64,000 nucleotides of DNA, from assembly GCA_965247145.1 (NCBI GenBank), contig CBDFGH010000006.1:168778-232777 (forward strand), in the 5' to 3' direction. How positions within the stretch are numbered: the first letter of the stretch is position 1; every line of letters starts with the position of its first letter. This DNA comes from Rickettsiales bacterium (lineage in GTDB: Bacteria; Pseudomonadota; Alphaproteobacteria; Rickettsiales; JAIXRX01). The notes under the pieces are model-generated. The model made no database searches and was not told the DNA's origin. It was given only the letters and a program-made list of their open reading frames with translations. A program made the translations under genes and the position numbers. Below, piece after piece: positions 2,522-63,424 of the stretch.

Positions 2522-3106
2522 TTACTGCCGCTGAATGCCCGCATCCCGGTCGCGTGCAGGCGCGCCGATGGCGGGGGCGCTGATGCGGCCGAGGCTGGCT
2601 TCGGTGATGCGTACCGTGTCGGCGGCGACGCCCATATTCAGCAGGCGTTCGCCTTCGCGCATGATGCTTTGCGCCAGATTCGGCTGGCTCATGAAGATTT
2701 TCTTGATGCGTTCCATCGTCGCTTCCGAGATCAGCGCGGCGGCGGCGGCCAGATCAAAGGCGGCGCGGCTCATGCCGCTGGCGCGGGTGGTTTTCTCCCG
2801 CGTCTGGCGCGCCATTTCGTGTTGGCGATTGTCGCGCTCGATGCTCCATGCGGCCATGCGCTGGCGCAGCATCTGCTTCACATGTTCCGGCAGATTGGCA
2901 AACATCGCATTGATGATCGTATCCGGTGCCACGCCGGACTCCAGGCCCGGCAGCGCCATCTCCAGGCAGGTTTCCACCGTCTGGTCGTCCGACTGCGAAG
3001 GCGTGGCGGGCGGGGCGCTGGCCTGCGTCAGATATTGCGCATCGGCATCGCTATCCTCGTAGCCGCTGAATTGCTTTTCTTCGTCGCTCACGGCGCGTTC
3101 CTTCAC
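2522..3106 (-). CDS. hypothetical protein (194 aa, acidic Ser/Pro-rich N-terminus)
   Basis: G/C-rich third codon positions on the minus frame. The overlapping plus-strand ORFs are Arg/Ser/Ala-rich antisense-type products. No family recognised. Confidence 0.65.
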   Translation of the reverse strand: MKERAVSDEEKQFSGYEDSDADAQYLTQASAPPATPSQSDDQTVETCLEMALPGLESGVAPDTIINAMFANLPEHVKQMLRQRMAAWSIERDNRQHEMARQTREKTTRASGMSRAAFDLAAAAALISEATMERIKKIFMSQPNLAQSIMREGERLLNMGVAADTVRITEASLGRISAPAIGAPARDRDAGIQRQ

Positions 3107-6003: not shown

Positions 6004-7833
6004 TCAGCCCAGCACGGTTTGCGCGCTCTTGGGCCCGCTCTGCATCGGTGTCGTTTTCGGTACTGTGCTGGTCGCTTGCGCCAAGCTCACATTGCCCTCA
6101 TTCTGCGAGAGCATGCCAAGCGATGCCTGTAACTTGGCCAGATCGACCGGGCTTGTGGCGGATTTGTCCGATTCGATCAGGCTGCCCCCCAGGGAAACCA
6201 CCCGCGTGTTGATCGCCGCCGCCACCGCTTCCTGCGCTTGGGGCGTGACGGATGCGGGAATGCGCGATTCGGCGGGCGCGTTCTGCGCCGTGCGCACGGC
6301 CGGCTGAGCCGGATCTTCCTCGTGCATGACGGCTGCGCCGTTACTGTTTACACCACGCTGCATCGGGTGCTGCTTGGCATATACGACAGCAGCAGCCCGC
6401 ACGTCAGCGTTGAACTCTGCTTCACTAAGACCACCGTTAAAACGCGGATGGCTTTTGATGTTTGCCGTAGGATGGTTGGAGAGAAACTCGGTATAGGTGT
6501 ATTTTTCGATCTTGGTGTTGGAAGTTCCGCCGCTCGCTTTATACTGCTCGCGCATATCGAGAATAACGGCTTTGCCCAATGCATCATAGGCCTGCTTCTC
6601 TGTTTTCGATTCATACAGATCAGCTACGATTTGCGCATCGCGCATCTGTAAATTGCCCACAGCACCGTTATTCGGTCTGGCAGGGGCTGCGTTCGCCGCA
6701 GGGCTAGCAGGGGCGACCGCTGCCGGTGGCGTTGGCGTTGGCGGTGTCGGTGTCGAACTCTGCGCTTGCGGCGCAACGGTGCCAGTCGATTGTGAAGCAG
6801 CACTTTCTTGCGGAGCGCTCGCGGCCGTAAAAACTTCCTGCGCCCAAGGAGCAAAGGTATAGGCGTTCCAGCCGTTGGCTTGGGCGAATACTTGAATGTT
6901 GCTGGCATTGAGCGGGTTCGGCGCGTCCAGGCGCGTTTCACCACGACTATACCGGCAAAGCTGTACGTAATCTTCTACGATATGTTTAAACGCCGTTTGT
7001 GCCATAATTGCGGCATCTGAGCTCTTTGGCTGTGTGGGATCGCCGTATTTAAACCAATTTCCGGCATTGTTTTTATATTCTTGTGCATGTTGGGCCATAT
7101 TAGCGGCTGCGGTGTTGCGGCGAGAAATCACTACGGTGAATGGCAGTTCACCAATGGCATTATCGGAAGTGTTGGCGCTCTTTTCGCGGAGATCGTCCAA
7201 TTCTTGCTTCTGTGTCTTAATCTGCGTTTTCACCGCAGCCAGACTTTCGGCATACTCCATCACCGCTTCGTAATCACCCGGCGTGATTTTGATTTTGGTT
7301 TTGGCCGTGAATTCATTTGGATCTATTTCGTCTCGGTTTAGCAAGCATGCTGTGAAATAAGAAGTCTGGGATTTCGTAAGCCCAGTCAGTCGGCGCTTGT
7401 AAAACTGGTCCAGATTCTCTTGATAGCGAAGCTGCTCTTGCTGGTAGATATCTGTCACATCATTGTTGATACGGGCGTTGGCTTTGTTTGTTTCACCGTC
7501 CAATATGACATTGGCCGCTCTGTTGGCCACACCACGAACGATATTGGTAGCTTCGCCAGGAAATGCATTGGCGAGAATCCCTGCCACTTCTTCAACGCCT
7601 ACTCCAATCGCCAATTGTTTGACACCACTTCCACTGAAAGCCGGGGAAGTCTGGGAATAATTCAATTGGCCATCTTTGAACGTATTCTTATCAAGCTTGC
7701 TTAAGCTGAACCCATATTTGCGGGATTTTTTACCGGCAAGAATGGCGAACGGATTTTCATCATCCACCACATGGGATTGGGATTCGGGATTTGTCAGCTC
7801 GACCATGGGGATATCCGCTTTGATAAAGTACAT
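6004..7833 (-). CDS. hypothetical large protein (609 aa) with Pro/Thr/Ala linker
   Basis: Long ORF with central low-complexity linker SSTPTPPTPTPPAAVAPASPAANAAPARP separating two globular halves. Has its own terminator. No signal peptide or known domain seen. Confidence 0.75.
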   Translation of the reverse strand: MYFIKADIPMVELTNPESQSHVVDDENPFAILAGKKSRKYGFSLSKLDKNTFKDGQLNYSQTSPAFSGSGVKQLAIGVGVEEVAGILANAFPGEATNIVRGVANRAANVILDGETNKANARINNDVTDIYQQEQLRYQENLDQFYKRRLTGLTKSQTSYFTACLLNRDEIDPNEFTAKTKIKITPGDYEAVMEYAESLAAVKTQIKTQKQELDDLREKSANTSDNAIGELPFTVVISRRNTAAANMAQHAQEYKNNAGNWFKYGDPTQPKSSDAAIMAQTAFKHIVEDYVQLCRYSRGETRLDAPNPLNASNIQVFAQANGWNAYTFAPWAQEVFTAASAPQESAASQSTGTVAPQAQSSTPTPPTPTPPAAVAPASPAANAAPARPNNGAVGNLQMRDAQIVADLYESKTEKQAYDALGKAVILDMREQYKASGGTSNTKIEKYTYTEFLSNHPTANIKSHPRFNGGLSEAEFNADVRAAAVVYAKQHPMQRGVNSNGAAVMHEEDPAQPAVRTAQNAPAESRIPASVTPQAQEAVAAAINTRVVSLGGSLIESDKSATSPVDLAKLQASLGMLSQNEGNVSLAQATSTVPKTTPMQSGPKSAQTVLG

Positions 7834-24311: not shown

Positions 24312-24518
24312 TCAGTGAAAGAATGTTTCTTTAGTTAGTCCGGATTGCCGCACGATGGAAGCGAAGGTTCCTTGCGGTGTGCCGGGCTTAGGGTGTGGCA
24401 CGATCACCGTGCGTTCGCCGCGTACGTATTTGGCGTGACTGCCGCGCTTGGATTTGAAGATGAATCCCTCTCGTTCCAGCACCGCGATGATCTCCCGTGA
24501 GCTTAAAAGCTTAGCCAT
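24312..24518 (-). CDS. hicA: HicA-family mRNA interferase toxin
   Basis: 68 aa; LEREGFIFKSKRGSHAKYVR...VIVPHP...GTFASIVRQSGL matches the HicA/YcfA pattern (GSH motif). Overlaps hicB by 8 nt, and its stop lies 7 nt before the nuoG start. Confidence 0.85.
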   Translation of the reverse strand: MAKLLSSREIIAVLEREGFIFKSKRGSHAKYVRGERTVIVPHPKPGTPQGTFASIVRQSGLTKETFFH

Positions 24519-24720
24519 GAATCGTGCTTTCGCCGATCATCGCCAGTTCTATCGGCACAAAATCTGCCGGATCGTGATCTTCAAAATACAGTTCCACCGC
24601 TTCGCGAATGTTGCGCACCGCTTCGTCGATCGAATCACCGAAAGTGCTCACATCCACGTTCAGGCATTGCGCCACGTAATGTTCGCCTTCCTTGGTCACG
24701 ACATATTGAATGCTGCGCAT
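24511..24720 (-). CDS. hicB: HicB-like antitoxin (short form, no DNA-binding domain)
   Basis: 69 aa; YVVTKEGEHYVAQCLNVDVSTFGDSIDEAVRNIREAVELYFE matches the HicB/UPF0150 N-terminal fold pattern. Sits immediately upstream of hicA. Confidence 0.8.
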   Translation of the reverse strand: MRSIQYVVTKEGEHYVAQCLNVDVSTFGDSIDEAVRNIREAVELYFEDHDPADFVPIELAMIGESTIHG

Positions 24721-24735
24721 GGCTCGCGTTCCTCG

Positions 24736-25410
24736 TTACTTCAGTTCTTTTTGAATGTTGTTCTTCGCACAGGGGAATTTGATCACCAAGGCGTTGATGA
24801 TTTCCTGGGCGGCGGGGGCTTTGGTGGGGCGGTCGGGGCGGGCTTTGCGCCATTCCTGAATGGCCGTCATCACCTCGGCATCGGTCATCTGCAGTTTGGG
24901 TTTCATGTCCGCGCCGCAGAAAAGCGTTTTGCCTTCCAGGGCTTTTTCCTTTTTGGCTTTCACTTCGAAGAAAGCGAGCGCCATATCGAGCGTGCCGGCG
25001 ATGTAGGCATGGCAGAGATTCTGGTCGGGTTCGGCTTTCGCATCGCACTTTTCCAGCAATTCGCTGAAGCGCATGCCCAAGGAACACATTTCCGATTTGG
25101 TGGCGATGAGATGCTGCAGGAGGATGTAGGAAGCCGGGGTTTCGGGGTCTTTGGCAGCGGCAAAGAGACCTTTGGGACCGTCCACCGCATCCATCACCGC
25201 GTCCAGCGTTTTGATGTCTTTTTCCTCGCAGCCTTCATGCTTGCTGTGCAGCAGCCAATAGCGCTCCGAACCGCCCAGGGCATACGCCCGGCATATCGGG
25301 CTGCCCGCCGTGCAGATGGGTTTCAGCTCGCCCGCATTGGTGAAGGCGCTGGCCGCGATGGGCAGCAGCGAAGCCAGCCCGAGGATAATGGTAGAAATCA
25401 AAATACGCAT
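24736..25410 (-). CDS. periplasmic protein with Rap1a/Tai4-like domain(s)
   Basis: Signal peptide MRILISTIILGLASLLPIAASA. The C-terminal half LCHAYIAGTLD...LFCGAD...TDAEV...W...RPD...PAAQEIINALVIKFPC fits the Rap1a/Tai4 Cys pattern, and the N-terminal half is a degenerate copy. Confidence 0.6.
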   Translation of the reverse strand: MRILISTIILGLASLLPIAASAFTNAGELKPICTAGSPICRAYALGGSERYWLLHSKHEGCEEKDIKTLDAVMDAVDGPKGLFAAAKDPETPASYILLQHLIATKSEMCSLGMRFSELLEKCDAKAEPDQNLCHAYIAGTLDMALAFFEVKAKKEKALEGKTLFCGADMKPKLQMTDAEVMTAIQEWRKARPDRPTKAPAAQEIINALVIKFPCAKNNIQKELK

Positions 25411-47746: not shown

Positions 47747-47905
47747 CTAGGCTTGGCGCATCCACCATTCATTGACTGAGCGTTTTTCGCCGCAGGGACT
47801 GCCTGCCGCGCCCACACATGGGCTCTTCAACTCATGGGTTTCCTTTTCGCAGGCGGTCAGGCCAGCGGTCAGGATCAGAGTAAAAAGTGCGATGCGTACA
47901 ATCAT
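47747..47905 (-). CDS. 52-aa lipoprotein downstream of the virB6 paralogs (VirB7-like candidate)
   Basis: Not in the ORF track (<60 aa). Hand translation MIVRIALFTLILTAGLTA-CEKETHELKSPCVGAAGSPCGEKRSVNEWWMRQA* with lipobox LTAC. Lies 72 nt downstream of the last virB6 paralog on the same strand. Confidence 0.55.
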   Translation of the reverse strand: MIVRIALFTLILTAGLTACEKETHELKSPCVGAAGSPCGEKRSVNEWWMRQA

Positions 47906-47977
47906 ACCCACGACATTACCAAATCACGCCGCCAGTGCAATGGCATTTCTTTTCAGACCCGGCACAGGCGGAGCGCA

Positions 47978-49648
47978 TCATTCGGAAATCTTGGGACCGT
48001 TCTCCGAGATACCTTGCTGCACATTCGAAACGACACCGCCGATTTTATCATTGAGTATGTCGTTCGGGGATTCGCCGGGCGTGCTGCGCACTTCTCCGGC
48101 GGCGCTTTTCAATGTTTCCATCATCGATTCGCCTTGTTTGGCGCCTTCCCCCATGGCTCCCGTGGCCATCTTCATCATGGCGCTGCCCGCGCCGCTGACG
48201 CTGCCTGCGGCACGCTGTGCCATACCCATCGGGTCGATGCCGTTGCGCTGGGCCATGGCGGCAAGTTCCTGGCCGGAAGTGGTGATGCTGACATTCCCAC
48301 CCGAAAGTTCGCTGGCGATCTGCTGGACATAACTGCTGTAGCGCCAGGACAGCGAGGAAAGCAGCACGAACATAAGCACGTCCACCATGTGAATCTGCAT
48401 GTTCGCCTTCTGCCAAAGGTCGGTGGCGATGGGAATGGGACTGTTGCCGCCACGGTTGCTGACATAGCCGAGCACGTCGTTTGCCGTAGCGTGATGAGCA
48501 AATGAATCCGAAACCGGAAAGAACCACCAAATCTGCGCGATTTCCATATCCCAAAACGGTCCATAGCACACATTGATTTCAAGAATTGGTTTGAGCACAC
48601 CCGCAATCATCGTCATGAAGAATCCGAGGAAGGCGAAGACGAAGACGGGTTGAAGGGCGAAGCTGAGGCAAAGGTTGAACCAGCCGTCGAACAATCGCCG
48701 GGTCTGGTCGAACAACAGACAGACGATGAAGATCGGGGAAATGGCGAAGAGCACGAATAGACCGATCAGGGCCTTGACGTAGGTAGCCAGCGCCCCGAGC
48801 GCCGCCAGCAGGAAAAAGAAGGTGCCCTGAATCAGGAAGAGCATCAGCACGAATCCGCTCAAACCCGCGAACATCATGCTGAGAATGACCATGATAAAGC
48901 GGATATCCATGACCATCTGCAACGGCACGATGAGAAAGTTCAGCGGGGCGTTGGTGAGCATGGTGTTTGGCAGCTGGTGCAGCCCCACATTCAAACCTCT
49001 CGGCAATGCATTCAGACTACCGACGGTGGCGGTGTAATAGGCGGTAATCAATTCGTTCATGCCGCCGATGAAGAAGCTCTGGATGATGATGCTCACCCCG
49101 CCCCCCACGATCAGGTAATACATGATCGCGATCTTCAATATACGGATGAAGGCTTCGTACCATGTGATGTCGACCAGATTGAACAGCACCATGATGCCGA
49201 ATACGACGAGATACAGCATCACCGTCGCATTCATCGCAGCAACAAAACCGGTATCGTGGGTCAGGGTTCGGAAGAGGTCTTTCCACCGCGGGCTGGAAGC
49301 GCTGGAACCGATGAACATGGTATTGATCTTGTCAAACACCGCGTCGAGCGTCGCGGCGACTTGCATGAGATTGCGCGAACCTTCGGGCGGGCCGGAGACG
49401 TCTGTCATCGAAACATATTGCGCGCATTCCGGCGGTGGGCTCGCGCCAACGCATTCTGGGTGAAAATCTCTTGACTGCAATGTCGTTGCAGGAGCCGCTT
49501 TTCCAAACGAACAAAACGGACCCAACCGATCGGTGGCGGAAACCTGGGCATGCGCCGTGTGCGGCGCAATCGCCACCAACCACATCAGAAGGACATACAG
49601 GCAAATAGGTGAATATCTGCGGAAGGGATAAGAGAGCATAAGCATCAT
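47978..49648 (-). CDS. virB6: VirB6/TrbL-family T4SS inner-membrane protein, paralog 3
   Basis: 556 aa with signal peptide ...APHTAHA and a polytopic core bearing FDQTRRLFDGWFNLCLSFALQP, shared with the two upstream paralogs. Hydrophilic Gly/Met-rich tail. ATGA overlap with the upstream stop. Confidence 0.8.
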   Translation of the reverse strand: MMLMLSYPFRRYSPICLYVLLMWLVAIAPHTAHAQVSATDRLGPFCSFGKAAPATTLQSRDFHPECVGASPPPECAQYVSMTDVSGPPEGSRNLMQVAATLDAVFDKINTMFIGSSASSPRWKDLFRTLTHDTGFVAAMNATVMLYLVVFGIMVLFNLVDITWYEAFIRILKIAIMYYLIVGGGVSIIIQSFFIGGMNELITAYYTATVGSLNALPRGLNVGLHQLPNTMLTNAPLNFLIVPLQMVMDIRFIMVILSMMFAGLSGFVLMLFLIQGTFFFLLAALGALATYVKALIGLFVLFAISPIFIVCLLFDQTRRLFDGWFNLCLSFALQPVFVFAFLGFFMTMIAGVLKPILEINVCYGPFWDMEIAQIWWFFPVSDSFAHHATANDVLGYVSNRGGNSPIPIATDLWQKANMQIHMVDVLMFVLLSSLSWRYSSYVQQIASELSGGNVSITTSGQELAAMAQRNGIDPMGMAQRAAGSVSGAGSAMMKMATGAMGEGAKQGESMMETLKSAAGEVRSTPGESPNDILNDKIGGVVSNVQQGISENGPKISE

Positions 49649-51714
49649 TTTTTAACTTCCGGTTTGGCGGCGCTTTGAATGCGGCTGAGAATGGCGCCGA
49701 GATCGGTATTTTCCACAATGGCTTCCCGCCCGCTGGCCACCAGGGCTCCGCCCCCACGTCGCACGAAATTGCTGACATTGTCGACGGGATTGAAAGTGGA
49801 GCCGCCGCGCTTTTCCGCGCGTGTCCAGCGCGCTTCGGTACTACCGAGAAAGCTTTCGATACGGTCCGCGAACGGCACCCCGCTGTCGCCGCTCACCGGC
49901 GCGCTGCGCCCGCCGCGCGAAAGCAGGCTTGCCATGCCGCCGGTAATGGCAATGCCGCCACTGCCGACAATGGAACGCGCGATCTGCGGCACGGCCTGAT
50001 TGAGCGAGACGAAAAGAAATATCATCAGAAAGGCGCTGAATACCGAGCCACTGAGCTTCATCAGAAACCATTCCTGAAAATTGGCGTCCACCCTTCCAGG
50101 AATCAACGTAATGTAATGCGGATTCGGCCCACCGCTGGCGACCCATTTATGCGTCTGCGGATCGAAGGCGCCGCCCACCATGCCCGTAGCACGAAACGCC
50201 TGCAATATCTGCGGGGTCAACCCGTCGTTTGCCGGAGTGGCGGGAATCTCGCCCTGTACCTTTCTAAGGAACCGATCGTAGGTGCCGTTGATGCGCAGAT
50301 CGATGATCGGCATCCAGATCGGATCGAGCGAGACACTGCTCAAGCTTTGCAACGAGCGGATCATCGTGCCGACATCGCTGCTGGCGGTGAAGGCATCCAA
50401 ATATTTTTTGGCCGTTGCGAGTCCGCCCGCCACATCCCGTGTTATTTGTTTGCCTACGATATCTGCGATATTGGATAGCTCTCTCGAGCTCAAAATATCG
50501 AATAACACCACGCCCTCGTCTCGTACCATGTTGCGCAACACGATGCGGCGCATTTCCGATTGGACTTTCAAATCAGCATTCCTGATGCGATCAAAGCCCA
50601 GCACCTCGTAGATGCTGTAGACGACCCCAGCATTCCTTGTCCAATTGCTCGGTGGAGATCCTGTGCTGCCGGCGATGAAGTAGCTCGCGCCGAAAATACT
50701 CACCGACATGAAAATGACGAGAATAAACGGCTGAAAGATGATGCCGATATAGATGAACAGCCATTTGGTGAAATAGCTCATGGTGCGCCGGAACATGAGC
50801 GTGGGTATGACCAGCGGCACGAAAATGAGAATGACCGCGATCGCCAGATAGGCATGCATGATGTAGAAAATACAGCGCATGACATAAAGTATGATGGTAA
50901 ACATCAGCATGATCGTGCCGAAGAGAATGGCGATGCCCAGCGGCCCGCTCATCGCCGTGGCCATGATGAGCGACACGATGCCCGTCCAGAACGCCACACC
51001 CGCCACCATGCCGAACAGCATGCCGAGAATGCAATCCAGCGCGTTCCATAAGCGCACTTCCTGCTTGACGTCCTGCATGGTAACCGATGTTTGCCCGTTG
51101 GGGCTTGTGGTGGTGATAGGGATATGCAGCTCGATGCTACTGCGGTTGAGCCCACCAGCAGGCCCGGGTAGAGTGGGATCAAGTGAATTGTTGCAGCGTA
51201 TGAACAATTGCGCGGTGCCTTCCTGCGCCATATTGCCAAACAGGGTCGCGCCCCAATCCATCAACTCGTCCTGCACCGCCACGGCAATGCGCCCGATATT
51301 GAGGCTGCTCGCCCCGGTGGAAAGGCTCGTCAGCATCACCATCACGAAAGCGGCTTTGATCAACAGCAGCAACCCCTCGCCCTTCGGCGAGCGCACGCCG
51401 CCCATAGTCATCCGCACCCCGAACAACACGATGGAGAGAAAAATCACCGCGCCACCGATGGGCAGCATGAAGCGTGCGATGGGTGCCACCACGGTGGCTG
51501 CCGCCGTATAGGTCATCACCCGCATACAAGCCACCGCACGTGCACTGAGCGTGCCGGCCAGCTCGGGCACTCTCATGCATTCGGACTGCGAAATGTCTGC
51601 CAGATCGATAACGTAGCCGAGTGGGTCTAAGGCCAAAGCGGGGGTTGCCACACCGATCATGCCGCAGCAGAAAACCGCGATCATGAGGAAAAAGAGGATG
51701 CGGGGCTGCTGCAT
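49645..51714 (-). CDS. virB6: VirB6/TrbL-family T4SS inner-membrane protein, paralog 2
   Basis: 689 aa with signal peptide ...GVATPALA and core motif FRRTMSYFTKWLFIYIGIIFQP, plus a large hydrophilic C-terminal region. Starts 2 nt after the upstream stop. Confidence 0.8.
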   Translation of the reverse strand: MQQPRILFFLMIAVFCCGMIGVATPALALDPLGYVIDLADISQSECMRVPELAGTLSARAVACMRVMTYTAAATVVAPIARFMLPIGGAVIFLSIVLFGVRMTMGGVRSPKGEGLLLLIKAAFVMVMLTSLSTGASSLNIGRIAVAVQDELMDWGATLFGNMAQEGTAQLFIRCNNSLDPTLPGPAGGLNRSSIELHIPITTTSPNGQTSVTMQDVKQEVRLWNALDCILGMLFGMVAGVAFWTGIVSLIMATAMSGPLGIAILFGTIMLMFTIILYVMRCIFYIMHAYLAIAVILIFVPLVIPTLMFRRTMSYFTKWLFIYIGIIFQPFILVIFMSVSIFGASYFIAGSTGSPPSNWTRNAGVVYSIYEVLGFDRIRNADLKVQSEMRRIVLRNMVRDEGVVLFDILSSRELSNIADIVGKQITRDVAGGLATAKKYLDAFTASSDVGTMIRSLQSLSSVSLDPIWMPIIDLRINGTYDRFLRKVQGEIPATPANDGLTPQILQAFRATGMVGGAFDPQTHKWVASGGPNPHYITLIPGRVDANFQEWFLMKLSGSVFSAFLMIFLFVSLNQAVPQIARSIVGSGGIAITGGMASLLSRGGRSAPVSGDSGVPFADRIESFLGSTEARWTRAEKRGGSTFNPVDNVSNFVRRGGGALVASGREAIVENTDLGAILSRIQSAAKPEVKK

Positions 51715-51716
51715 AC

Positions 51717-53432
51717 CTACCCCTTCCCGCCGAATTTGCTGAAAACATCGGCCAATCCCTGCTGGGCTTGCCCCATCGAACCTTCCGAGCCGCGTAGGCC
51801 ACCCTCGATGCCGCGATTCAGGCTGCTGACCCCGGAAAGTGCGGTTTTCCCAAGATCACCGCCCATGCGATTGACCTTGTTGATGTCCCCGCTATCCACC
51901 GCTGCTGCCGCCAGCAGGTTCACGAATTCCGGCAGCTGACGTAGAAAATGATAGAGTACGAAGAGGATGATGAAGGCGGTGAACATCGCCAGAAAGGGCC
52001 TTGCCATGGCCTGCGCGGTCCGCACGTCGTAGGATTGGGTGGAAATGCTCGGCCAACTGTAGCCGTTGTTTTTCTGAATCAGCGCCTGGCTTGCACTACG
52101 GAACTGGGTTAGCAGGTAATCCAACACCTCGCCGGAAATAGGCAGGCTCTTGAGTTCAGATTCGGTCGAGGCACTGGCAAGGGTGGTGAGTTCGACGATG
52201 AAACGGTTGATCGAACGCTCCCCGATGCGGTTGAACGCCTTCTGGATTTGCGGCACCGTGCATTCGGACTCGCCATAGGCCTTGACGTTGGTATGCGACA
52301 ATTCATTGGCCGCTTGGTTCAACGCCGCCACTACCGAATATTTCTTCAGGCAGACCACATTTTCGAACACGGTGACGAACATCATCAAAAACAGGCACAG
52401 TAATATGGGCTGCATGGTGAAACCCACCAACATGCCGAACCAGCGCGTGAAATAATCACGGGTTTTCTGAAAGAAAATGCATGCCCAGGCCAGCGGTGCG
52501 ATCATCATCAACAGTATGATCGATATATGTGCGAGGATCATGATGCTGATCGAAATCTCCATCACCACGCCCAACGCATAGATCATGCCCCCGAATGCCG
52601 CAGCCGCGCCTTTGGCCAGATAACCGGAGAAGGCGTTTTTCATCATGACCCCGATCGGGGAGTTCGCGGAATTCTGTCCGACTTCGATGATGGATTGGGC
52701 GGCGCAATCGAGCTTGGCCCAGGGCACCAGGAAAATGTAATTGGGCCCGATGCTGGCCCCGGTGTAGGCGCTGCACAGAGAGCTGGGAATTTTCAGCGCG
52801 ATGGTGCCCGACCAATTGTTCAGCGTTTCGATCAGCGACTCGTAAAGCATGGGTATGGCCGCCACTGCCGCCAGCAAAATACCGATCTTCATGAAAATGA
52901 CGAAGATGCCGGAGAGAAATTCATTATGCCTTCCCAGCGCTACTTTCACACCCAGCATCACCAGCGCCAATAAAGAAACGGCGAGGATGATGTCGGTGAA
53001 AAGATTCGAGGTGGCGGTAATGGCAATCCGGCCGAAATAAATGATGGCCCCCGGCATATTGGCTGCGCCGTCGCCCGGCTGAGTTCCCAATAGACAACCG
53101 ACGATGCGCAGGGTGAGATAGAAATTTTCGCGGCCTGTTCCTGTGCCGTTGCCGGGTACATTCTGCCATTGGGCATGATTGACCGTTCTGAATTTTTTGA
53201 TGCCTTCGCTTTCGCCGCAGAAACGCGTTGATCCTATGCCCGACCACATGTTCGACAGACTGGTGAAGCTGGCATTCGGCCGCTGCTGTGCTTCCACCGA
53301 GAGCTTGTTGGGGAAAAAAGCGGAGGAAAGGATGAAGCAGAGAAACGTTCCGAAAAGAACGGCAAGGATGTGCCGCACCACCAACGGCCGTGCCGATCGC
53401 GCCAAACCGGCCGAAACGCTTCCCGCGCTCAT
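51717..53432 (-). CDS. virB6: VirB6/TrbL-family T4SS inner-membrane protein, paralog 1
   Basis: Core motif FQKTRDYFTRWFGMLVGFTMQP. ATG 53432 forms an ATGA overlap with the virB4 stop; the ORF-track start 53468 would overlap virB4 by 40 nt. Confidence 0.8.
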   Translation of the reverse strand: MSAGSVSAGLARSARPLVVRHILAVLFGTFLCFILSSAFFPNKLSVEAQQRPNASFTSLSNMWSGIGSTRFCGESEGIKKFRTVNHAQWQNVPGNGTGTGRENFYLTLRIVGCLLGTQPGDGAANMPGAIIYFGRIAITATSNLFTDIILAVSLLALVMLGVKVALGRHNEFLSGIFVIFMKIGILLAAVAAIPMLYESLIETLNNWSGTIALKIPSSLCSAYTGASIGPNYIFLVPWAKLDCAAQSIIEVGQNSANSPIGVMMKNAFSGYLAKGAAAAFGGMIYALGVVMEISISIMILAHISIILLMMIAPLAWACIFFQKTRDYFTRWFGMLVGFTMQPILLCLFLMMFVTVFENVVCLKKYSVVAALNQAANELSHTNVKAYGESECTVPQIQKAFNRIGERSINRFIVELTTLASASTESELKSLPISGEVLDYLLTQFRSASQALIQKNNGYSWPSISTQSYDVRTAQAMARPFLAMFTAFIILFVLYHFLRQLPEFVNLLAAAAVDSGDINKVNRMGGDLGKTALSGVSSLNRGIEGGLRGSEGSMGQAQQGLADVFSKFGGKG

Positions 53433-55828
53433 AGACGCCGCGCGCGTTCGAAGAAGACGGGCAGCCACTGGTCGGGATCGTCGCCCACTTTGGCGCGGAT
53501 GTCGTCGAGCAGGCGCACGGTATCGGCGCGCGCGGAAAGCACATTCACCGCATCCGTCATCCCGCTTAAGTCGATGCGGGCCACCACCATGTCTTTGTTC
53601 TGCTTCACCAGGAAGAAGCGGGAGCCGGGGTCGGTGCTTTTGATCAGGTTGAATTCCCGTTCGCTCAGCATGAAGGCGCTTCGATACACGCTGGTGGCTT
53701 TCGGGTTGGGCAGAAAAATCTGCGTGGCGGTCTGCTGGATCAGCGTGTCCGAGATCGCGCTGCTCGCCGCATCTTCGACCGATTGGGTGGCGAAGATCAC
53801 GAAAGCGTTCAGTTTCCGCAAGGTTTTCAGCCAGTCCTTGATCTTGCTCGCGAAGACAGAGTTATCGATCAGCGCCCAGGCTTCGTCCAGCACCAGCATG
53901 GTGGGCGTGCCGTCGAGCGAGAGGTTAATCTTGTGGAAGAGATACAGCAGCACCGGCGCCAGCGTGACTTTGTTGGAAAGCACCGGGCCCATTTCGAAAC
54001 CGAAATTGGCATGGGTGCTGAAATCCAGCGAGTCGAAGGGATTGTCAAACAATTTGGCGTATTGCCCGTCCGAATGCCACATGCGCAGGCGGCCCGCCAG
54101 CGAGCCCGGCCCCTCTAAGCCCAGGAAGGGCGCGATGTTGCGCAGCATGCGGTCTTTGCGGGCGAGCTTGAAATTGCCGTTCACCGCTTCGGTGATGAGC
54201 GCCATGTCTTCCGCCGTCAGCGGCTCGCCATACACCGTCACCAGCGTGCGCATCCATTCGCTGATGAAATTGCGATTCTCGTTGGTATCCGGCAGTTGCA
54301 GCGGGTTGAAGTTGCAGCGCTCGCCGGGTTCGATGATGTTGTAGGAGCCGTGGATGGCGCGGATGAAGATTTCGGCGCCGCGATCTTTGTCGAAGAAGAA
54401 CAGGCGGCAATTGAATTTCTGCGCCTGCGCGCAGAGGAAGTTCATCAGCACCGTTTTGCCCGCACCCGTGGGCCCGATGATGGTGGTGTGGCCCACGTCG
54501 CGTGCGTGGAAATTGAAATAATAGGGCGTGCCGGAAGTCGTATCCAGCACGCTCACCGCATCCCCCCAATGGTTGCCCGCAATGCGACCGGTGGGGTAAT
54601 TGTGCAGGCTCGCCATGCCCGCCACATTCAGGCTGTGGATTTTGGATTTGCGCGCCACATAGTCGAAATTCGCCGGCAGCTGCGACCAGAAGGCCTGCTC
54701 CAAGATCATCTTCTCCCGCGTCGGGTTGAAGCCGATATTGACCATTTCGGCCACTGCCATCGAAAGCGAGGATTCCATCGATTTTAGATCGTCTTCGATC
54801 ACCATCACCGTCATCTGGTGCTGCCCGAAGGCGACCGCCCCACCGGTGGCGAGATCGAGCGCATCCGAGATTTCGATGACCTGGCTGATCGCTTTATCCT
54901 GGCTCGCCATCTTGCGGCGCTGCTCGGTCTGCATGCTCTGGATCGAGGTGGCGCGGTTGATGAAGATGTAGGAATGGGTCACGATGAGTTCGCAGGGCAA
55001 TTGCAGAAACCCGTCCAGCATCCCGGCGGCGGTGGCGCTGGGATATTCCCGCACCGAAAGCATCGCGCCGTAGCGCGTTTTGTTCAGGCCGCGAAATTCG
55101 ATGGCACGGCTGCCGAAATAGATGCGCTGATAGGGCAGATAATGCGAGATGTCGGTCATCGGCACATGCATCTGCTTGCCGTCGCCGCCATTGATGAGCT
55201 TGCTCAGAAATTCCAATGGCTCGGAAACGGGGCCGTTTTCGGTGTCGATCGTGGTCAGCAATTCCGGGCTGTAATCGCGCAGGCTGGCCATCACGCGGTT
55301 CACCGCATCCGCCAGATCCTTGAAGGATTCCTGCATGCCCATGGCACGCTGCTGCTCGTTCACCCCGGCTGCGAGTTTGTTGAAATAATATTCCAGCTTG
55401 GCGAAACCGGCCTTGTCCGCCTTGCGCACCACGGTGATGTAGAGTTCGTTGATGAAGGCCTGTTTCGCGGTGCGCTTGGCCTTCCATTGCTCGTTGAGCA
55501 TATTGGCGAAACCGCGGCGGAATTTGCCCTTGGGGAAGCCCGGCTTGCGGCGGCGGATGGTGTGGAACCACAATGCGAAGTCGCCGTCCGACATGCTTTT
55601 CAGCAGCGAATTGCGCACCAGTTTCTTCATGTCCACGTCTTCGTCGTCCGCCGTTTCGAAAGCGAAACCGCTGACGCGGATGGTCTGCATCATCTCCCCG
55701 TTCTTGGTGATGATGGTCTCGCGGTCCCAATGATAATGGTAGGGAATGAACTCGGCGGCGGCCACCTCATGGGCGCTCTGCCACGATTGTGCCGTCTTGC
55801 GGATGGAGAATTGCTTGTAACTGCGCAT
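53429..55828 (-). CDS. virB4: type IV secretion system ATPase VirB4
   Basis: 799 aa with N-terminal FIPYHYHWDRETIITKNGEMMQTIRVSGFAFE, Walker A IIGPTGAGKT and Walker B MLVLDEAW. Confidence 0.93.
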   Translation of the reverse strand: MRSYKQFSIRKTAQSWQSAHEVAAAEFIPYHYHWDRETIITKNGEMMQTIRVSGFAFETADDEDVDMKKLVRNSLLKSMSDGDFALWFHTIRRRKPGFPKGKFRRGFANMLNEQWKAKRTAKQAFINELYITVVRKADKAGFAKLEYYFNKLAAGVNEQQRAMGMQESFKDLADAVNRVMASLRDYSPELLTTIDTENGPVSEPLEFLSKLINGGDGKQMHVPMTDISHYLPYQRIYFGSRAIEFRGLNKTRYGAMLSVREYPSATAAGMLDGFLQLPCELIVTHSYIFINRATSIQSMQTEQRRKMASQDKAISQVIEISDALDLATGGAVAFGQHQMTVMVIEDDLKSMESSLSMAVAEMVNIGFNPTREKMILEQAFWSQLPANFDYVARKSKIHSLNVAGMASLHNYPTGRIAGNHWGDAVSVLDTTSGTPYYFNFHARDVGHTTIIGPTGAGKTVLMNFLCAQAQKFNCRLFFFDKDRGAEIFIRAIHGSYNIIEPGERCNFNPLQLPDTNENRNFISEWMRTLVTVYGEPLTAEDMALITEAVNGNFKLARKDRMLRNIAPFLGLEGPGSLAGRLRMWHSDGQYAKLFDNPFDSLDFSTHANFGFEMGPVLSNKVTLAPVLLYLFHKINLSLDGTPTMLVLDEAWALIDNSVFASKIKDWLKTLRKLNAFVIFATQSVEDAASSAISDTLIQQTATQIFLPNPKATSVYRSAFMLSEREFNLIKSTDPGSRFFLVKQNKDMVVARIDLSGMTDAVNVLSARADTVRLLDDIRAKVGDDPDQWLPVFFERARRL

Positions 55829-55874
55829 GGGTCAGGCGGGTGCCGCGGCTTTCAAGTGGAGGAGGTTGAGTGGG

Positions 55875-56171
55875 CTAGAACAGATCGTAGGAATTCGTGC
55901 CGCCATGATAGCGGCGATTGACGCAACGCATGCCCTTGCTCATTCGCAGCATGACCAGTTCCAGCGCGCGCGGTTCTTTGCGACATACGAGAAAAGCGAA
56001 AGCGTGCAGGATGGGGAATACGACGCCGAGATAAATGAAATTCTTGGTATTGATGAAGGTCAACAGACAGATCATGCTGTTGAAGATGAAGAACATGTAG
56101 CTGACGCCACCAACCATGGTCGGACGGGTGAGGCCTTGAAAGAGCGGATCGACTTGCAAACGACCGGACAT
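55875..56171 (-). CDS. virB3: type IV secretion system protein VirB3
   Basis: 98 aa with DPLFQGLTRPTMVGGVSY followed by a hydrophobic hairpin. Immediately upstream of virB4. Confidence 0.88.
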   Translation of the reverse strand: MSGRLQVDPLFQGLTRPTMVGGVSYMFFIFNSMICLLTFINTKNFIYLGVVFPILHAFAFLVCRKEPRALELVMLRMSKGMRCVNRRYHGGTNSYDLF

Positions 56172-56180
56172 GATATTTCC

Positions 56181-56435
56181 TTACAGTTTCTGACTTTGAT
56201 GATCGGGCGCGGAAAGGCGCTTCGCATCGTGCCGCGTAGCAAAAAAACCAATCATATGCCCGATGGGGAAAAGGACGGACAGAAAGATAAAATTTCTAAA
56301 GAACAAGAATAGGGCTAGGCACAACAGCGAATTGATTAAAAAATAACGGTAACGCACACCGCCGACAAGCACCGGCCCAAGCACTGATTCATTGCCTGAT
56401 GCGCGCTTTGCTGTTTCGATTTTACCACCAGCCAT
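56181..56435 (-). CDS. VirB3-like paralog (84 aa)
   Basis: Ungapped hand alignment to the adjacent VirB3 core gives 24 identities over 55 residues (P.VGGV.Y..F..NS..C....F....NFI.L.V.FPI.H...F...R). Lies 9 nt upstream of virB3. Confidence 0.7.
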   Translation of the reverse strand: MAGGKIETAKRASGNESVLGPVLVGGVRYRYFLINSLLCLALFLFFRNFIFLSVLFPIGHMIGFFATRHDAKRLSAPDHQSQKL

Positions 56436-56916
56436 TGTCGTCCTTCTTGTCGGATTTCACCACTGTGCCATCCTTATTATAGAAGTTATTAATAAATTGT
56501 TGCGTCATGGCGGCGGCTTGCTGTGCTTGGGCAAGCTTCAGTGCGGCGGCTGCAGGCGTCCCATTGGCACCATTCAGCATTTTCCGCACTTCTTCGCGTT
56601 TCTTTTCCCGCTGTTTGATTGTTTTGTTGGCTTTGTCGATGGTGGCTTTGGTCTGAGAGGAAATCATCGCCTGCACCAGCTTCTTGGCTTTGCCCTGCAT
56701 GACGGGTTCGCCCGATTCGTCCACCACGTCAAGGCGCTTGGAAAGCATCTTCGCCTGAATCTCCGCCGTTTTGCGCGCGGTCATCAGCGTGTAGCGGTCG
56801 TCGGCGTTCATCTTCAGCAGCTTTTGTTTGTCGGCCGCGCTGCCGCCGGAATTTTTGTTCAGAATGCTGCCGCCGCCGCTTTTTCCGCCACTGCCGCCAC
56901 CCATCGAATACCGCAT
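56422..56916 (-). CDS. hypothetical Gly-rich / Lys-rich coiled-coil protein, first gene of the T4SS operon (orf164)
   Basis: Start chosen at ATG 56916 (AGGAG 6 nt upstream); the ORF-track start 57045 collides with the divergent gene. GGGSGGKSGGGS N-terminus, K/Q/A-rich middle, C-terminus ...KKDDNGWW*. Overlaps the virB3-like ORF by 14 nt. Confidence 0.55.
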   Translation of the reverse strand: MRYSMGGGSGGKSGGGSILNKNSGGSAADKQKLLKMNADDRYTLMTARKTAEIQAKMLSKRLDVVDESGEPVMQGKAKKLVQAMISSQTKATIDKANKTIKQREKKREEVRKMLNGANGTPAAAALKLAQAQQAAAMTQQFINNFYNKDGTVVKSDKKDDNGWW

Positions 56917-57043: not shown

Positions 57044-57631
57044 ATGCAACAGGAAAACCCGGAAAATCCACCGCTTCGTTCGTTCGGTTATCAACGGCTC
57101 GGGCTGTTGATCGCGGCATCCATGGTGGCGCTGCTGGCGATTCTCTTCGCGCCGCGCCCCATCATGCGCGACCGCCGCGACCCTGCACCCATCGCCCGCG
57201 CGCAGGAAGGCTTGGAAAAGCACACTTTCACGCTCACCCGCCAGGATGGGCGTGTGTTGCCTTTCACCCTCGAAATCGCAGCCACCGAGCGGCAGCAGGA
57301 AATCGGGCTGATGTTTCGCACCCAGTTGGCGGAAAACGAAGGCATGCTTTTCCCCTACCCGGATGACGCGCCGCGCATGATGTGGATGAAAAATACGCTG
57401 ATTCCGCTCGATATGCTCTTTTTCGATGGGGAAGGACGCCTCGTCTCGGTCATCACCCGCGCACAGCCGGAATCGGAGACCATTTTGGAATCGGTCGCTC
57501 CCGCGCGTCAGGTGCTGGAATTGCGGGCCGGTACGGTCGAAGCCTACGGCCTCGCGGTGGGTGATCGTTTGCGGGAAACCAGTGCAGCCCCCGGCAGCGT
57601 GCCCGCCGAAGCGCAGCCGAAGACGCACTAG
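57044..57631 (+). CDS. DUF192 domain protein
   Basis: CAGGAG SD. N-terminal TM, then GMLFPYPDDAPRMMWMKNTLIPLDMLFFDGEGRLVSV (DUF192 pattern). Confidence 0.8.
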   Translation: MQQENPENPPLRSFGYQRLGLLIAASMVALLAILFAPRPIMRDRRDPAPIARAQEGLEKHTFTLTRQDGRVLPFTLEIAATERQQEIGLMFRTQLAENEGMLFPYPDDAPRMMWMKNTLIPLDMLFFDGEGRLVSVITRAQPESETILESVAPARQVLELRAGTVEAYGLAVGDRLRETSAAPGSVPAEAQPKTH

Positions 57632-57633
57632 CC

Positions 57634-58185
57634 ATGTCCTTCCGCCGGTTCTTCTTACTGCTGCTCGCCCTGCCCTGCCTTGCGGCGGCCACCCCGTTTC
57701 TTTTCCGCCAAACCGAAATCACCATCCTCGCCCTCGGGCCGAAGCCCGGCAGCGTCGCCGCGCCTGCGGGGGCCGAAGGGAAAAACCCGCCCGCGCAGCC
57801 CATTGCGCCCACGCCGCGGCAGTTTCAGTTGAAAGCGCAGATGCGCCCGGCCTCGGCCCTGCTGCAGAAAGATCTCTTCAGCGTCGATCCTTTCGTGCAT
57901 ACCAGCGCGCATCTCTTCGTCTTCGACACGCCGAGTCTGACCGGGTTTCAAGCGCCCGCCATCCAGAAGCCGGTGGATATTCTGGCCATCAACCAGAACG
58001 GCATCATTCTGGAGATTATTCCCCAGGCCGTGCCCGCCCATCTCGACCCCAGCCAATATTCCGTGGAAGAACCCGTGCGCGCCCTGCTTTTCCTGCCGCG
58101 CGGCAGCGTGGACGCCAATGGATTAAGACCGGGGGACCGCGTGCTCAACGCCATCTTTGCGCGTCCACCGGAAAAAAGGAACTAA
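57634..58185 (+). CDS. DUF192-like paralog (degenerate)
   Basis: Signal peptide MSFRRFFLLLLALPCLAAA. HLFVFDTP...KPVDILAINQNGIILEI... parallels the DUF192 core of the upstream gene. Starts 2 nt after the upstream stop. Confidence 0.6.
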   Translation: MSFRRFFLLLLALPCLAAATPFLFRQTEITILALGPKPGSVAAPAGAEGKNPPAQPIAPTPRQFQLKAQMRPASALLQKDLFSVDPFVHTSAHLFVFDTPSLTGFQAPAIQKPVDILAINQNGIILEIIPQAVPAHLDPSQYSVEEPVRALLFLPRGSVDANGLRPGDRVLNAIFARPPEKRN

Positions 58186-62167: not shown

Positions 62168-63424
62168 TCAGCGAGCACTACGTTTGTCTTCTTCGCGTTT
62201 ATCTTCCTCTTCAGACCGAAAAAAGATGGCTACCGCATCTTTATTCGGAGCCCAGTCTGTCAAAATGACATCCTGATCCTCTGCACCTGTAAACAAGATC
62301 GGGGTGGTGGGGCTGCAGAGTATGCCAATATGACCTGGTAGCGGTTTCAGGCGGATGCGTAAATCTCCAATTTTACCACCCCGCCAATTCCCGCCGGTCT
62401 TCAAAATGAAGGTCGTGTAACCCCTGCTAAGGTATATCTGTTTGAGCGTTTTGAGCCTTTCCACGAAAAGCTTATTGATCGGAGCCTCGCAGCCATCCGG
62501 TGGCGCGCTATAATCCAGCAGCTTGATTGGATACTTTTCCACAGCCGTGCTTGGAGAAAGCCTGAAAACGTTGCTGCCCCAACTGTCATATAACGTGTTC
62601 ATAGCTTGCCTTATTTGTGTGACTGAATCGGCGGCTAGCGTTTCCTGCCACAGATAATTCAACTGAGCGACCCAGTTCGGGAAGTAATGATCTTCTTTTG
62701 TGGAGTAGGTATAGGCGTGGGCGTTGAATAAAGGTTGCAATAAAGCGCGGTCCACGCGGTTTGGTCGGATGAAATCTTTCGGTCTTTCGACCGACAAGCC
62801 AGCATGATGGAGCAATTGGGTGATGTCCGCCTGTTTCTCTGGCTCATAGAATGGCTCGACGTTTTCACTGTATTCTTTCCACTCCGCCCATTGTTTGGTG
62901 TCTCGATCCAATGGCTGTTGCAGATCGGCCAAAGCGCGGAAGGTCGGCGTCACATTTAAAATAGCCTGACTATTCACCCAAACTTGGAATTCGCTAGAGA
63001 GCGTCATGGGCTTTTGCAGGACGGCGCGCTGTATTCGTTTGTTAGTGGAAATGTCAGAATCAAAAAGATTTCCGTATTGGTCGATGTAGATGCGCCGACT
63101 AAGACACCAGCCGTTCAAGGAATCGACCAGATCTTCAAATTTTTTCAGATTTTCGGGCAGCGGTGCGGCGCCGAAACAGAAGGGGGGAGCATGAACAGGG
63201 AATGCTATGTTCATGGTCAAATCCTGGTTGGAGAATGAGTGGAAGTCGTAATTCACCTCCGTGCGCGATTCGCCGATGACGAGCTCTTCGCGCTCCATGC
63301 TGATGAGATCGGTTTTCATATATTGCGTGACGACCCCATCCTCTACGCTGCCTTCGAACGCAGTATCGTCTGCCCATGCATTGGTTACAAGGCATAGACC
63401 GACAACAAAAATTTTATATTTCAT
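62168..63424 (-). CDS. DUF4424-like secreted protein (AT-richer)
   Basis: Signal peptide MKYKIFVVGLCLVTNAWA. The N-terminal ...DLISMEREELVIGESRTEVNYDFHSFSNQDLTMNIAFPV resembles the DUF4424 opening pattern. About 42% G+C in one counted line. Confidence 0.6.
   Translation of the reverse strand: MKYKIFVVGLCLVTNAWADDTAFEGSVEDGVVTQYMKTDLISMEREELVIGESRTEVNYDFHSFSNQDLTMNIAFPVHAPPFCFGAAPLPENLKKFEDLVDSLNGWCLSRRIYIDQYGNLFDSDISTNKRIQRAVLQKPMTLSSEFQVWVNSQAILNVTPTFRALADLQQPLDRDTKQWAEWKEYSENVEPFYEPEKQADITQLLHHAGLSVERPKDFIRPNRVDRALLQPLFNAHAYTYSTKEDHYFPNWVAQLNYLWQETLAADSVTQIRQAMNTLYDSWGSNVFRLSPSTAVEKYPIKLLDYSAPPDGCEAPINKLFVERLKTLKQIYLSRGYTTFILKTGGNWRGGKIGDLRIRLKPLPGHIGILCSPTTPILFTGAEDQDVILTDWAPNKDAVAIFFRSEEEDKREEDKRSAR

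Follow-up and report, generated by a model that had tools for sequence, protein, structure and literature searches.

The locus at positions 47747–56916 of the window (the whole 64,000-nucleotide stretch of DNA that was analysed) is very probably the islet rvhB3-rvhB4(I)-rvhB6(x3)-rvhB7 from a P-type type IV secretion system (T4SS) of the rvh (Rickettsiales vir homolog) type, inherited with the chromosome of an uncultured GC-rich 'basal Rickettsiales' host within or next to the Mitibacteraceae. An earlier sequence-only reading had called it an rvh-type islet and not a conjugative system, which is borne out by the equivalog models passed and by the order virB3-virB4-multiple virB6, with no virB5 between virB4 and virB6 and apart from virB8-11/virD4. 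Comparable systems in bacteria of this sort were already published in 2022–2024, so the locus is a new example with small lineage-specific extras and not a new kind of system.

Gene content and operon layout

Eight minus-strand genes of the same orientation occupy the locus, and all ORFs are present at the coordinates below.

56422..56916, minus strand: orfX (orf164), first gene of the operon
56181..56435, minus strand: VirB3', divergent VirB3 paralog, 14-nt overlap with orfX
55875..56171, minus strand: RvhB3 (VirB3), by Pfam and NCBIfam matches
53429..55828, minus strand: RvhB4-I (VirB4 ATPase), by NCBIfam match and Walker motifs
51717..53432, minus strand: RvhB6 paralog a (VirB6a), 571 aa from the ATG overlapping the VirB4 stop, by Pfam TrbL
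49645..51714, minus strand: RvhB6 paralog b (VirB6b), 689 aa, by position, Pfam TrbL being below cut-off
47978..49648, minus strand: RvhB6 paralog c (VirB6c), 556 aa, by Pfam TrbL
47747..47905 (47911 with a GTG start), minus strand: RvhB7 lipoprotein, 52–54 aa, by lipobox LTAC and position

The gene order first read from the letters, with VirB3 directly upstream of VirB4 and then three VirB6/TrbL paralogs of 556–689 aa, holds at these coordinates, and the tight packing described for the eight co-oriented genes is exact: ATGA overlaps join VirB6b to VirB6c (49645–49648) and VirB4 to VirB6a (53429–53432), orfX and VirB3' share 14 nt (56422–56435), and the intergenic gaps measure 2, 9, 46 and 72 nt, the last being 66 nt with the GTG start of the lipoprotein. 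The mechanical ORF of orfX reaches 57045, and its relatives begin at the same MR[YH]xM. The 4-nt VirB4/VirB6a overlap is also called in the related loci L006, L007, L011 and L012. Because the VirB4 stop and the VirB6a start share nucleotides, the canonical virB5 slot is empty, and no VirB5/TrbJ family was found within the window. All loci retrieved that span the whole islet, at a G+C content of 48–55%, share the layout B3-B4-3xB6-B7. Promoter and terminator scans of the locus gave signals at or below shuffled expectation, and an Rfam search returned two tRNAs only.

VirB4 and VirB3

VirB4 matches Pfam CagE_TrbE_VirB with 163 bits and the NCBIfam equivalog NF010473/PRK13898 with 1200 bits, above its cut-off of 1050; the Agrobacterium-type model NF010427, with a cut-off of 957, gives only 446 bits, and the NCBIfam TrbE and TraC models stay far below theirs. 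VirB3 likewise matches Pfam VirB3 (85 bits) and the equivalog NF010474/PRK13899 (114.6 bits, cut-off 74), and both equivalogs are presumably the Rickettsiales models of VirB4 and VirB3. The Walker A (GPTGAGKT, residue 452) and Walker B (LVLDEAW, residue 645) motifs of VirB4, as originally noted, are both intact, and the protein matches the R388 TrwK structures (7o41) over its full length with 473 bits. Purifying values of dN/dS were obtained against relatives for VirB4 (0.05–0.11) and for VirB3 (0.03–0.09), the latter being 54–93% identical across all related loci and the predicted inner-membrane subunit partnering VirB4.

Hundreds of metagenomic proteins are 62–97% identical to this VirB4, and the few named matches are all 'Rickettsiales bacterium', while among more than 5000 plasmid VirB4s the closest is 41.9% identical and comes from a plasmid with contiguous B1-B11/D4 including B2, B5 and a 340-aa B6. 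In a neighbour-joining tree of environmental VirB4 sequences and one plasmid outgroup, whose root position is unreliable, a very long branch splits the whole group from the plasmid. Classical Rickettsiales VirB4 are not part of this tree, and assignment to the rvh clade comes from the NCBIfam models and the labelled MAGs.

VirB6 paralogs and the RvhB7 lipoprotein

The three VirB6 paralogs are anciently diverged, conserved in position and enlarged. Their tandem lengths of 571, 689 and 556 aa exceed the VirB6 core of ~300 aa, and their number falls within the three to five copies typical of rvhB6. When the profile-HMM check proposed at the outset was run, VirB3, VirB3', VirB4, VirB6a (TrbL, 53.6 bits) and VirB6c (54.7 bits) passed in Pfam, and VirB6b, the most divergent of the three paralogs, remained at 21.8 bits under the TrbL cut-off of 25.9. 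Position supplies the assignment: in all related loci VirB6b corresponds by position to the middle VirB6 as its ortholog, and its top matches are the middle VirB6 of L006, L007, L009 and L004. Correspondingly, VirB6a, which has multiple hydrophobic spans, finds its top matches in the first VirB6 of other loci and VirB6c in the third of every other locus; a sequence search with VirB6c gave no solved structural relative. At dN/dS of ~0.3, the paralogs are 53–61% identical in amino acids to their counterparts in relatives where VirB4 is 90–97% identical.

The terminal lipoprotein had been counted among the 'extra parts' of the operon, together with the second VirB3 and orf164. It is instead a predicted outer-membrane, VirB7-like RvhB7 and thereby a standard component, whereas the other two extras are real and restricted to a small clade. 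Rickettsia RvhB7/ComB7 proteins feature '[KI]KSP' plus Cys and a P[ILV]NK-like motif (PMC2653234). The window protein possesses the lipobox LTAC, followed by LKSPC...SPCG.KRSVNEWW, and the motif string runs LTAC...LKSPC...SPCGEKRSVNEWW, with PVNE or PVND in orthologs; lipobox Cys, KSP plus Cys and the P[ILV]NK-like motif are all there, at a gene position unlike that in Rickettsia. Orthologs of 47–55% identity directly follow the third VirB6 in L001, L002, L004, L006, L007, L009 and L012, and a weak NCBIfam LvhB7 match (19.6 bits) covers the lipobox region.

orfX and the second VirB3

VirB3' is a genuine VirB3 derivative, extremely fast-evolving and clade-restricted. It is a two-transmembrane hairpin with a truncated C-terminus that matches Pfam VirB3 with 29 bits (cut-off 23.9), and hhalign of its family profile against the VirB3 profile gave a probability of 95.4% (E = 1.9e-8). 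Positional ORFs of 70–91 aa are found in L007/L008, L011 and L012, and are absent from L006 and L009. Amino acid identity is 36% to L011 and 29% to L012, where VirB4 is 97% and 90% identical, and the GC3 of 0.49 is atypical. That VirB3' represents the missing VirB2 pilin was considered and rejected: a search permitting E <= 10 showed no TrbC/VirB2 signal, against 75 bits for a genuine plasmid VirB2 used as control.

The product of orfX, which matched no family in Pfam, NCBIfam or PADLOC, is Lys-rich and helical, with a Gly-rich N-terminus, a conserved C-terminal ...GNGWW and no signal peptide. Orthologs occupy the same position in L006, L007/L008, L009, L011 and L012, and a search of 1.84 billion representatives yielded just 3 homolog clusters. 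With dN/dS of 0.11–0.23 and an AF2 model of three long helices (pLDDT 61), orfX is a putative helical orphan, clade-restricted and under selection. Both orfX and VirB3' are lineage-specific additions apparently co-translated with the operon, and most likely would be accessory or modulating inner-membrane/cytoplasmic factors.

Genomic context, inheritance and host lineage

Housekeeping genes surround the islet, with carD, sdh and DUF192 at its flanks, and the synteny RelA-PdxJ-AcpS-DUF192x2-orfX-(B3')-B3-B4-B6x3-B7-CarD is common to L006, L007 and L009, the shorter loci L008, L011 and L012 showing the same order across the spans covered. For contigs carrying both genes, the RelA identity closely tracks that of VirB4 (RelA/VirB4: 100/100, 83/84, 82/80, 75/73, 70/67 and 69/66). 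The GC3 of the rvh genes is 0.69–0.81 versus 0.74–0.82 for housekeeping genes, and the cluster has a G+C content of 56.3%, the remainder of the window one of 59.1%. On account of the housekeeping synteny in six related genomes, the RelA-paced divergence and the native codon usage, the islet is judged to be vertically inherited and not a mobile element. The initial impressions that it was not recently acquired, and that it is native to the GC-rich, metabolically well-equipped alphaproteobacterial chromosome, are upheld by these conserved flanks, by the codon usage and by co-divergence with RelA.

In line with the gene inventory first given for the window, the Pfam scan of its ORFs showed no virB1, B2, B5, B8-B11, virD4 or relaxase; among the ~56 further ORFs nothing matched another T4SS family, a relaxase or an integrase, no coupling protein, B1, B2 or B5 was found within the window, and rvhB8-B11, rvhD4, rvhB4-II and rvhB2 are likewise not in it. 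As expected of a scattered islet, B8-B11/D4 are absent within 47 kb upstream and 7 kb downstream, and they are not beside the islet in L006, L007, L009 and L012 either. The marks of a conjugative system (an adjacent relaxase and coupling protein, contiguous B1-B11, a mobile context) were not found in the window.

That the host lies outside the Rickettsiales, in another alphaproteobacterial lineage which acquired rvh laterally long ago, is unlikely. Points in its favour are a G+C content of 59%, well away from that of classical Rickettsiales, several related MAGs with no label beyond 'Alphaproteobacteria bacterium', and the first split of the window clade in the neighbour-joining tree rooted on the plasmid, a root that is unreliable; the host is placed by the single-gene proxies RelA and VirB4. 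However, a RelA search finds the same contigs in the same ranking as VirB4, including RS372 (L002; RelA MBN66909 68% and VirB4 62% identical to those of the window), a Mitibacteraceae genome (PMC9352585; PMC11077975), and the accession of one RelA match falls into the numbering of a MAG, a 'Rickettsiales bacterium', from the set of Lehman et al. Published Mitibacteraceae MAGs have 58.3% and 61.1% G+C, and T4SS are near-universal in the basal families (Castelli et al. 2024, PMC10847448); the host stays within the published 42–61% range, and its relatives form a G+C continuum of 43–59%.

Still less probable is a decaying remnant, in which rvh is being lost in a free-living lineage and the machine is non-functional. 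The window shows no more than half of a T4SS, and VirB3', with its atypical GC3, and the VirB6 paralogs have moved fast (36% and 53–61% identity) where VirB4 has not (90–97%); yet 8 of 8 ORFs are intact and translationally coupled, dN/dS is 0.03–0.11 for VirB4 and VirB3 and ~0.3 for the VirB6 paralogs, the ATPase motifs are intact, every relative examined has the same intact gene set, and the complete system is documented in the literature for basal Rickettsiales (PMC9352585; PMC10847448). An ordinary conjugative plasmid or ICE T4SS fragment (Trb/Tra/VirB) integrated into the chromosome is effectively refuted. VirB3, VirB4 and TrbL/VirB6 are generic P-type components, and full-length alignments join VirB4 to plasmid VirB4s and to R388 TrwK, but the best plasmid VirB4 reaches 42% against 62–97% for chromosomal Rickettsiales-type homologs, the TrbE and TraC models lie far below their cut-offs, relaxase, integrase, coupling protein, B1, B2 and B5 are absent from the window, the housekeeping flanks are identical in clade-mate genomes, and codon usage is native with co-divergence with RelA.

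Comparison with known systems

An rvh system had been regarded by the sequence-only reading as not classically described in such a lineage and lifestyle, a view that is outdated, as it is already present in published work (PMC9352585; PMC11077975; PMC10847448). In free-living-like Mitibacteraceae and Athabascaceae with larger, higher-GC genomes, rvh with duplications was described by Schon et al. (2022, PMC9352585), and RvhB4-I and RvhB4-II were tabulated for 33 environmental MAGs (Lehman et al. 2024, PMC11077975), among them RS372 (RvhB4-I MBN66708, RvhB4-II MBN67286; Table S1). Like the window, basal environmental Rickettsiales such as RS372 and UBA1002 (L001) have an islet of B3-B4-three B6-small lipoprotein, on the chromosome of larger, higher-GC and biosynthetically complete genomes. 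The window clade adds orfX (6 of 6 clade-mate loci) and the VirB3 paralog (4 of 6), its flanking synteny is unlike that of L001, L002 and L004, and the G+C content of the window lies towards the upper end of published values.

As published (PMC10732058), rvh genes lie in scattered clusters, rvhB6 is enlarged and present in 3–5 copies, and VirB5 is lacking. Duplication of rvhB4, rvhB8 and rvhB9 into divergent -II copies is a further mark of rvh. With Rickettsia and Orientia (Gillespie 2009; PMC10732058) the window shares the scattered islets, B3-B4(I) followed by multiple enlarged B6, a virB4-virB6 junction that leaves no place for virB5, and an RvhB7 lipoprotein bearing KSPC together with a P[ILV]NK-like motif. 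In contrast, it has three B6 copies of 556–689 aa versus five of 674–1154 aa in Rickettsia, rvhB7 follows rvhB6 while it is clustered with rvhB8 in Rickettsia and Orientia, and the host is GC-rich with a genome that is not reduced.

The VirB3, VirB4, VirB6 and VirB7 of VirB/D4 and conjugative P-type systems (A. tumefaciens Ti, R388 Trw, Shinella plasmid CP132319) are homologous to those of the window, where VirB4 can be aligned with TrwK (7o41) along its whole length and the archetypal order B3-B4-...-B6-B7 is kept. Those systems differ in that B1-B11/D4 form one uninterrupted operon, B2 pilin and B5 included, with VirB6 present once at ~300–340 aa; VirB4 identity is ~42%, and they are plasmid-borne and serve DNA transfer. 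The X-T4SS of Xanthomonas and Stenotrophomonas delivers toxins to rival bacteria by contact, the function proposed for free-living basal Rickettsiales rvh, but its genes form a contiguous operon, and its VirB7 is large and includes an N0 domain. Neither an XVIPCD-type effector nor a matching immunity gene was detected in or around the locus.

By analogy with R388 and Agrobacterium, VirB4 hexamers would dock on VirB3 and VirB6 and form an inner-membrane energising/translocation platform, and RvhB7, lipid-anchored in the outer membrane, would clamp a VirB9/VirB10 core whose genes would lie at another locus beyond the window. The machine would then export proteins by cell contact and not conjugate DNA. 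Its targets may be neighbouring bacteria, as published for basal Rickettsiales, or protists, the two being about equally plausible.

Implications

A further-reaching view, possible though rather doubtful, is that the window clade is a distinct, perhaps the earliest-splitting, GC-rich rvh branch, with orfX and VirB3' as new T4SS parts and the break points B6|B7-B8 and B6-B7|B8 as two independent operon fragmentations. If so, the cytoplasmic orfX could be an adaptor or a substrate, and VirB3' a regulatory decoy of the VirB3-VirB4 interface. Divergent -II duplicates are presumed to autoregulate rvh, and such a decoy would be analogous.

As an rvh islet of basal Rickettsiales, the locus adds a well-assembled GC-rich case to the small set in which rvh predates host dependence. 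For reconstruction of the rvh 'archipelago', it presents rvhB7 still after rvhB6 and the rvhB6 triplication already fixed with positions conserved, while the VirB6 paralogs and the VirB3 duplicate diverge very fast and VirB4 and VirB3 barely. The current picture, of rvh present in free-living-like ancestors and repurposed later, is unchanged.

Gene content and family assignments

Mechanical ORF lists of the window return all eight minus-strand genes of the islet where a sequence-only reading had placed them, with the junctions it had claimed: neighbouring genes share an ATGA at 49645-49648 and again at 53429-53432, another pair overlaps by 14 nt (56422-56435), and the remaining gaps measure 2, 9, 46 and 72 nt.

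[quoted passage not shown]
56422-56916 (-), orfX (orf164)
56181-56435 (-), VirB3', an 84-aa divergent VirB3 paralog

The start codons implied by that reading are backed by relatives. For ATG 53432 of the first VirB6 the support is the 4-nt VirB4/VirB6 overlap, called identically in four related loci (L006, L007, L011, L012); for ATG 56916 of orfX it is the N-terminus MR[YH]xM, present in all homologs. The VirB4 motifs are likewise present, Walker A at residue 452 and Walker B at residue 645. VirB-family profiles recognize VirB4, VirB3, VirB3', VirB6a and VirB6c, but VirB6b stays below the TrbL cut-off.

Pfam assignments of the islet proteins
VirB4: CagE_TrbE_VirB, 163 bits, cut-off passed
VirB3: VirB3, 85 bits, cut-off passed
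VirB3' (84-aa ORF, upstream): VirB3, 29 bits, cut-off 23.9
VirB6a, VirB6c: TrbL, about 54 bits, cut-off passed
VirB6b (689 aa): TrbL, 21.8 bits, cut-off 25.9, failed

With the NCBIfam models, which are more specific than Pfam for these proteins, VirB4 passes the equivalog NF010473/PRK13898 (1200 bits, cut-off 1050) and VirB3 passes NF010474/PRK13899 (115 bits, cut-off 74); we take PRK13898 and PRK13899 to be Rickettsiales clusters. The same VirB4 fails the Agrobacterium-type model (446, cut-off 957) and lies far under threshold for TrbE and TraC, while R388 TrwK chains from cryo-EM align with it end to end.

Relatives and inheritance of the islet

An identical database copy of the window VirB4 lies on a 234,684-bp contig, followed by L011 (97% identity), L012 (90%), L006 (84%, 2.3-Mb contig), L007 (80%) and L009 (73%), and by hundreds of further relatives at 62-68%, of which all that carry an organism name are 'Rickettsiales bacterium'. 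Two clade members, L006 and L011 (8.7-kb contig), come from one metagenome, ENA sample ERZ26165376. A scan of genome contigs retrieved isolate RS372 (L002), which Schon et al. (2022, PMC9352585) place among Mitibacteraceae in their trees and to which Lehman et al. (2024, PMC11077975) give the label MITI. Among more than 5000 plasmid VirB4s the best match, from a Shinella plasmid, reaches 41.9% identity, and that plasmid shows a contrasting archetype with contiguous B1, B2, B3, B4, B5, a 340-aa B6, B8-B11 and a coupling protein. In a neighbour-joining tree of environmental sequences and one plasmid outgroup, the window VirB4 groups with L006, L007, L009 and P0004, and a very long branch splits the whole environmental group from the plasmid.

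The islet is native, vertically inherited and under selection, as shared synteny, RelA-parallel divergence, matching GC3 and dN/dS together indicate. Over the stretch that each of them covers, the six clade-mate loci retain the neighbourhood RelA-PdxJ-AcpS-DUF192x2-orfX-(B3')-B3-B4-B6x3-B7-CarD, and a search with the window RelA retrieves the same contigs in the same ranking as VirB4, with RelA/VirB4 identities on shared contigs of 100/100, 83/84, 82/80, 75/73, 70/67 and 69/66%; RS372 RelA (MBN66909) is 68% identical. GC3 of the rvh genes (0.69-0.81) matches that of housekeeping genes (0.74-0.82), and the earlier view of an islet not recently acquired is borne out. Nei-Gojobori dN/dS is about 0.05 (VirB4), 0.03-0.09 (VirB3), about 0.3 (VirB6 paralogs) and 0.11-0.23 (orfX). 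The tandem DUF192 pair (57044-58185, +), divergent to the rvh operon, is adjacent in all clade-mates, not in L001 (UBA1002) or L004.

Duplicated, clade-restricted and terminal components

Each window VirB6 (556-689 aa, many hydrophobic spans) finds its best match in the same-position paralog of nearly all other loci, RS372 included, and the triplication thus predates the divergence of these lineages. These sizes fit the 'enlarged RvhB6' hallmark of rvh (PMC10732058), and the paralogs diverge far faster than VirB4. Between the window and L011, amino-acid identity within the operon ranges from 97% for VirB4 over 93% for VirB3, 83% for orfX and 58% for VirB6a down to 36% for VirB3'.

Both parts singled out as extra upstream of VirB3 are real. 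VirB3' is a gene family limited to part of the clade, present in the window, L007/L008, L011 and L012 and absent from L006 and L009; Pfam detects only the window copy among four, but a four-copy profile matches the VirB3 profile across the two-TM hairpin (95% probability, E = 2e-8). Its assignment as VirB2 was rejected, there being no VirB2 signal. orfX is confined to this clade, and a search of 1.84 billion representatives places its homologs in 3 clusters. The protein has no signal peptide, ends in a conserved GNGWW and is modelled, at low confidence, as three long helices. Since orfX is translated together with the operon and is under purifying selection, it is a candidate accessory factor. 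A Trp-Trp pair near or at the C-terminus is conserved in all relatives of both orfX (GNGWW, 56422-56435) and RvhB7 (VNEWW, 47747-47770).

The terminal lipoprotein, in contrast, is not the extra part it had been taken for but RvhB7, given its conserved position and pattern: a 49-64-aa lipoprotein directly follows the third VirB6 in L001, L002, L004, L006, L007, L009 and L012, with the invariant pattern lipobox-Cys ... [LM]KSPC.G....SPCG.[KR]R.VN[EDN]WW. The defining features of Rickettsia RvhB7 are a P[ILV]NK-like motif, the lipobox Cys and a further Cys after [KI]KSP, the last of which it has in common with ComB7 (Gillespie et al., 2009, PMC2653234). Whereas rvhB7 is clustered with rvhB8 in Rickettsia and Orientia (PMC2653234, PMC10732058), the window gene keeps the ancestral place after rvhB6, and the operon break point therefore differs.

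Remainder of the window

Outside the islet the window holds housekeeping genes, and a Pfam scan of about 56 further window ORFs bears out the earlier statement that it contains no relaxase or other type IV secretion genes; it found no integrase either.

Housekeeping set I: bolA/grx, rpsD, LeuA-like synthase, RNase J, coaX, birA, nuo operon
Housekeeping set II: folC/folP/folK, pabB, sdhCDAB, carD, acpS, pdxJ, relA
24312-25410 (-), three genes breaking the nuo operon between nuoG and nuoF: HicA toxin (53 bits), weak HicB-like ORF, signal-peptide protein with Rap1a domain (46 bits)
32678-33698, DUF4145 gene just upstream of nuoA, adjoining tRNA-Asp and tRNA-Val
1365-2507 (+), 2522-3106 (-), 6004-7833 (-), 62168-63424 (-), orphan or near-orphan genes with GC3 below background

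Rap1a proteins are periplasmic immunity proteins against peptidoglycan-amidase effectors, and this gene could have a bearing on interbacterial antagonism. The DUF4145 gene, with a very low GC3 of 0.35, resembles a short foreign insert next to tRNA genes. Among the low-GC3 orphans are a DUF4424 protein and a 609-aa protein in which a long linker is rich in Pro and Ala; most of the group match no Pfam or PADLOC family.

Lineage context and putative function

The central inference of the sequence-only reading, that a GC-rich lineage without genome reduction carries an rvh-like system, stands, but not its novelty, as such systems were published between 2022 and 2024. In Mitibacteraceae and Athabascaceae the genomes are larger and richer in G+C, the biosynthesis of amino acids and nucleotides is complete, and an rvh system with its duplications is present, for which a bacteria-directed role was proposed (Schon et al., 2022, PMC9352585). 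RvhB4-I/II were given for 33 environmental MAGs (Lehman et al., 2024, PMC11077975), and Castelli et al. (2024, PMC10847448) added Arkhamiaceae and Jistubacteraceae, found the type IV secretion system almost universally conserved and reported Mitibacteraceae MAGs at 58.3% and 61.1% G+C. By homology, the encoded machine would be a contact-dependent protein exporter, with a putative inner-membrane platform and outer-membrane lipoprotein anchor, the targets of which may be bacteria or protists.
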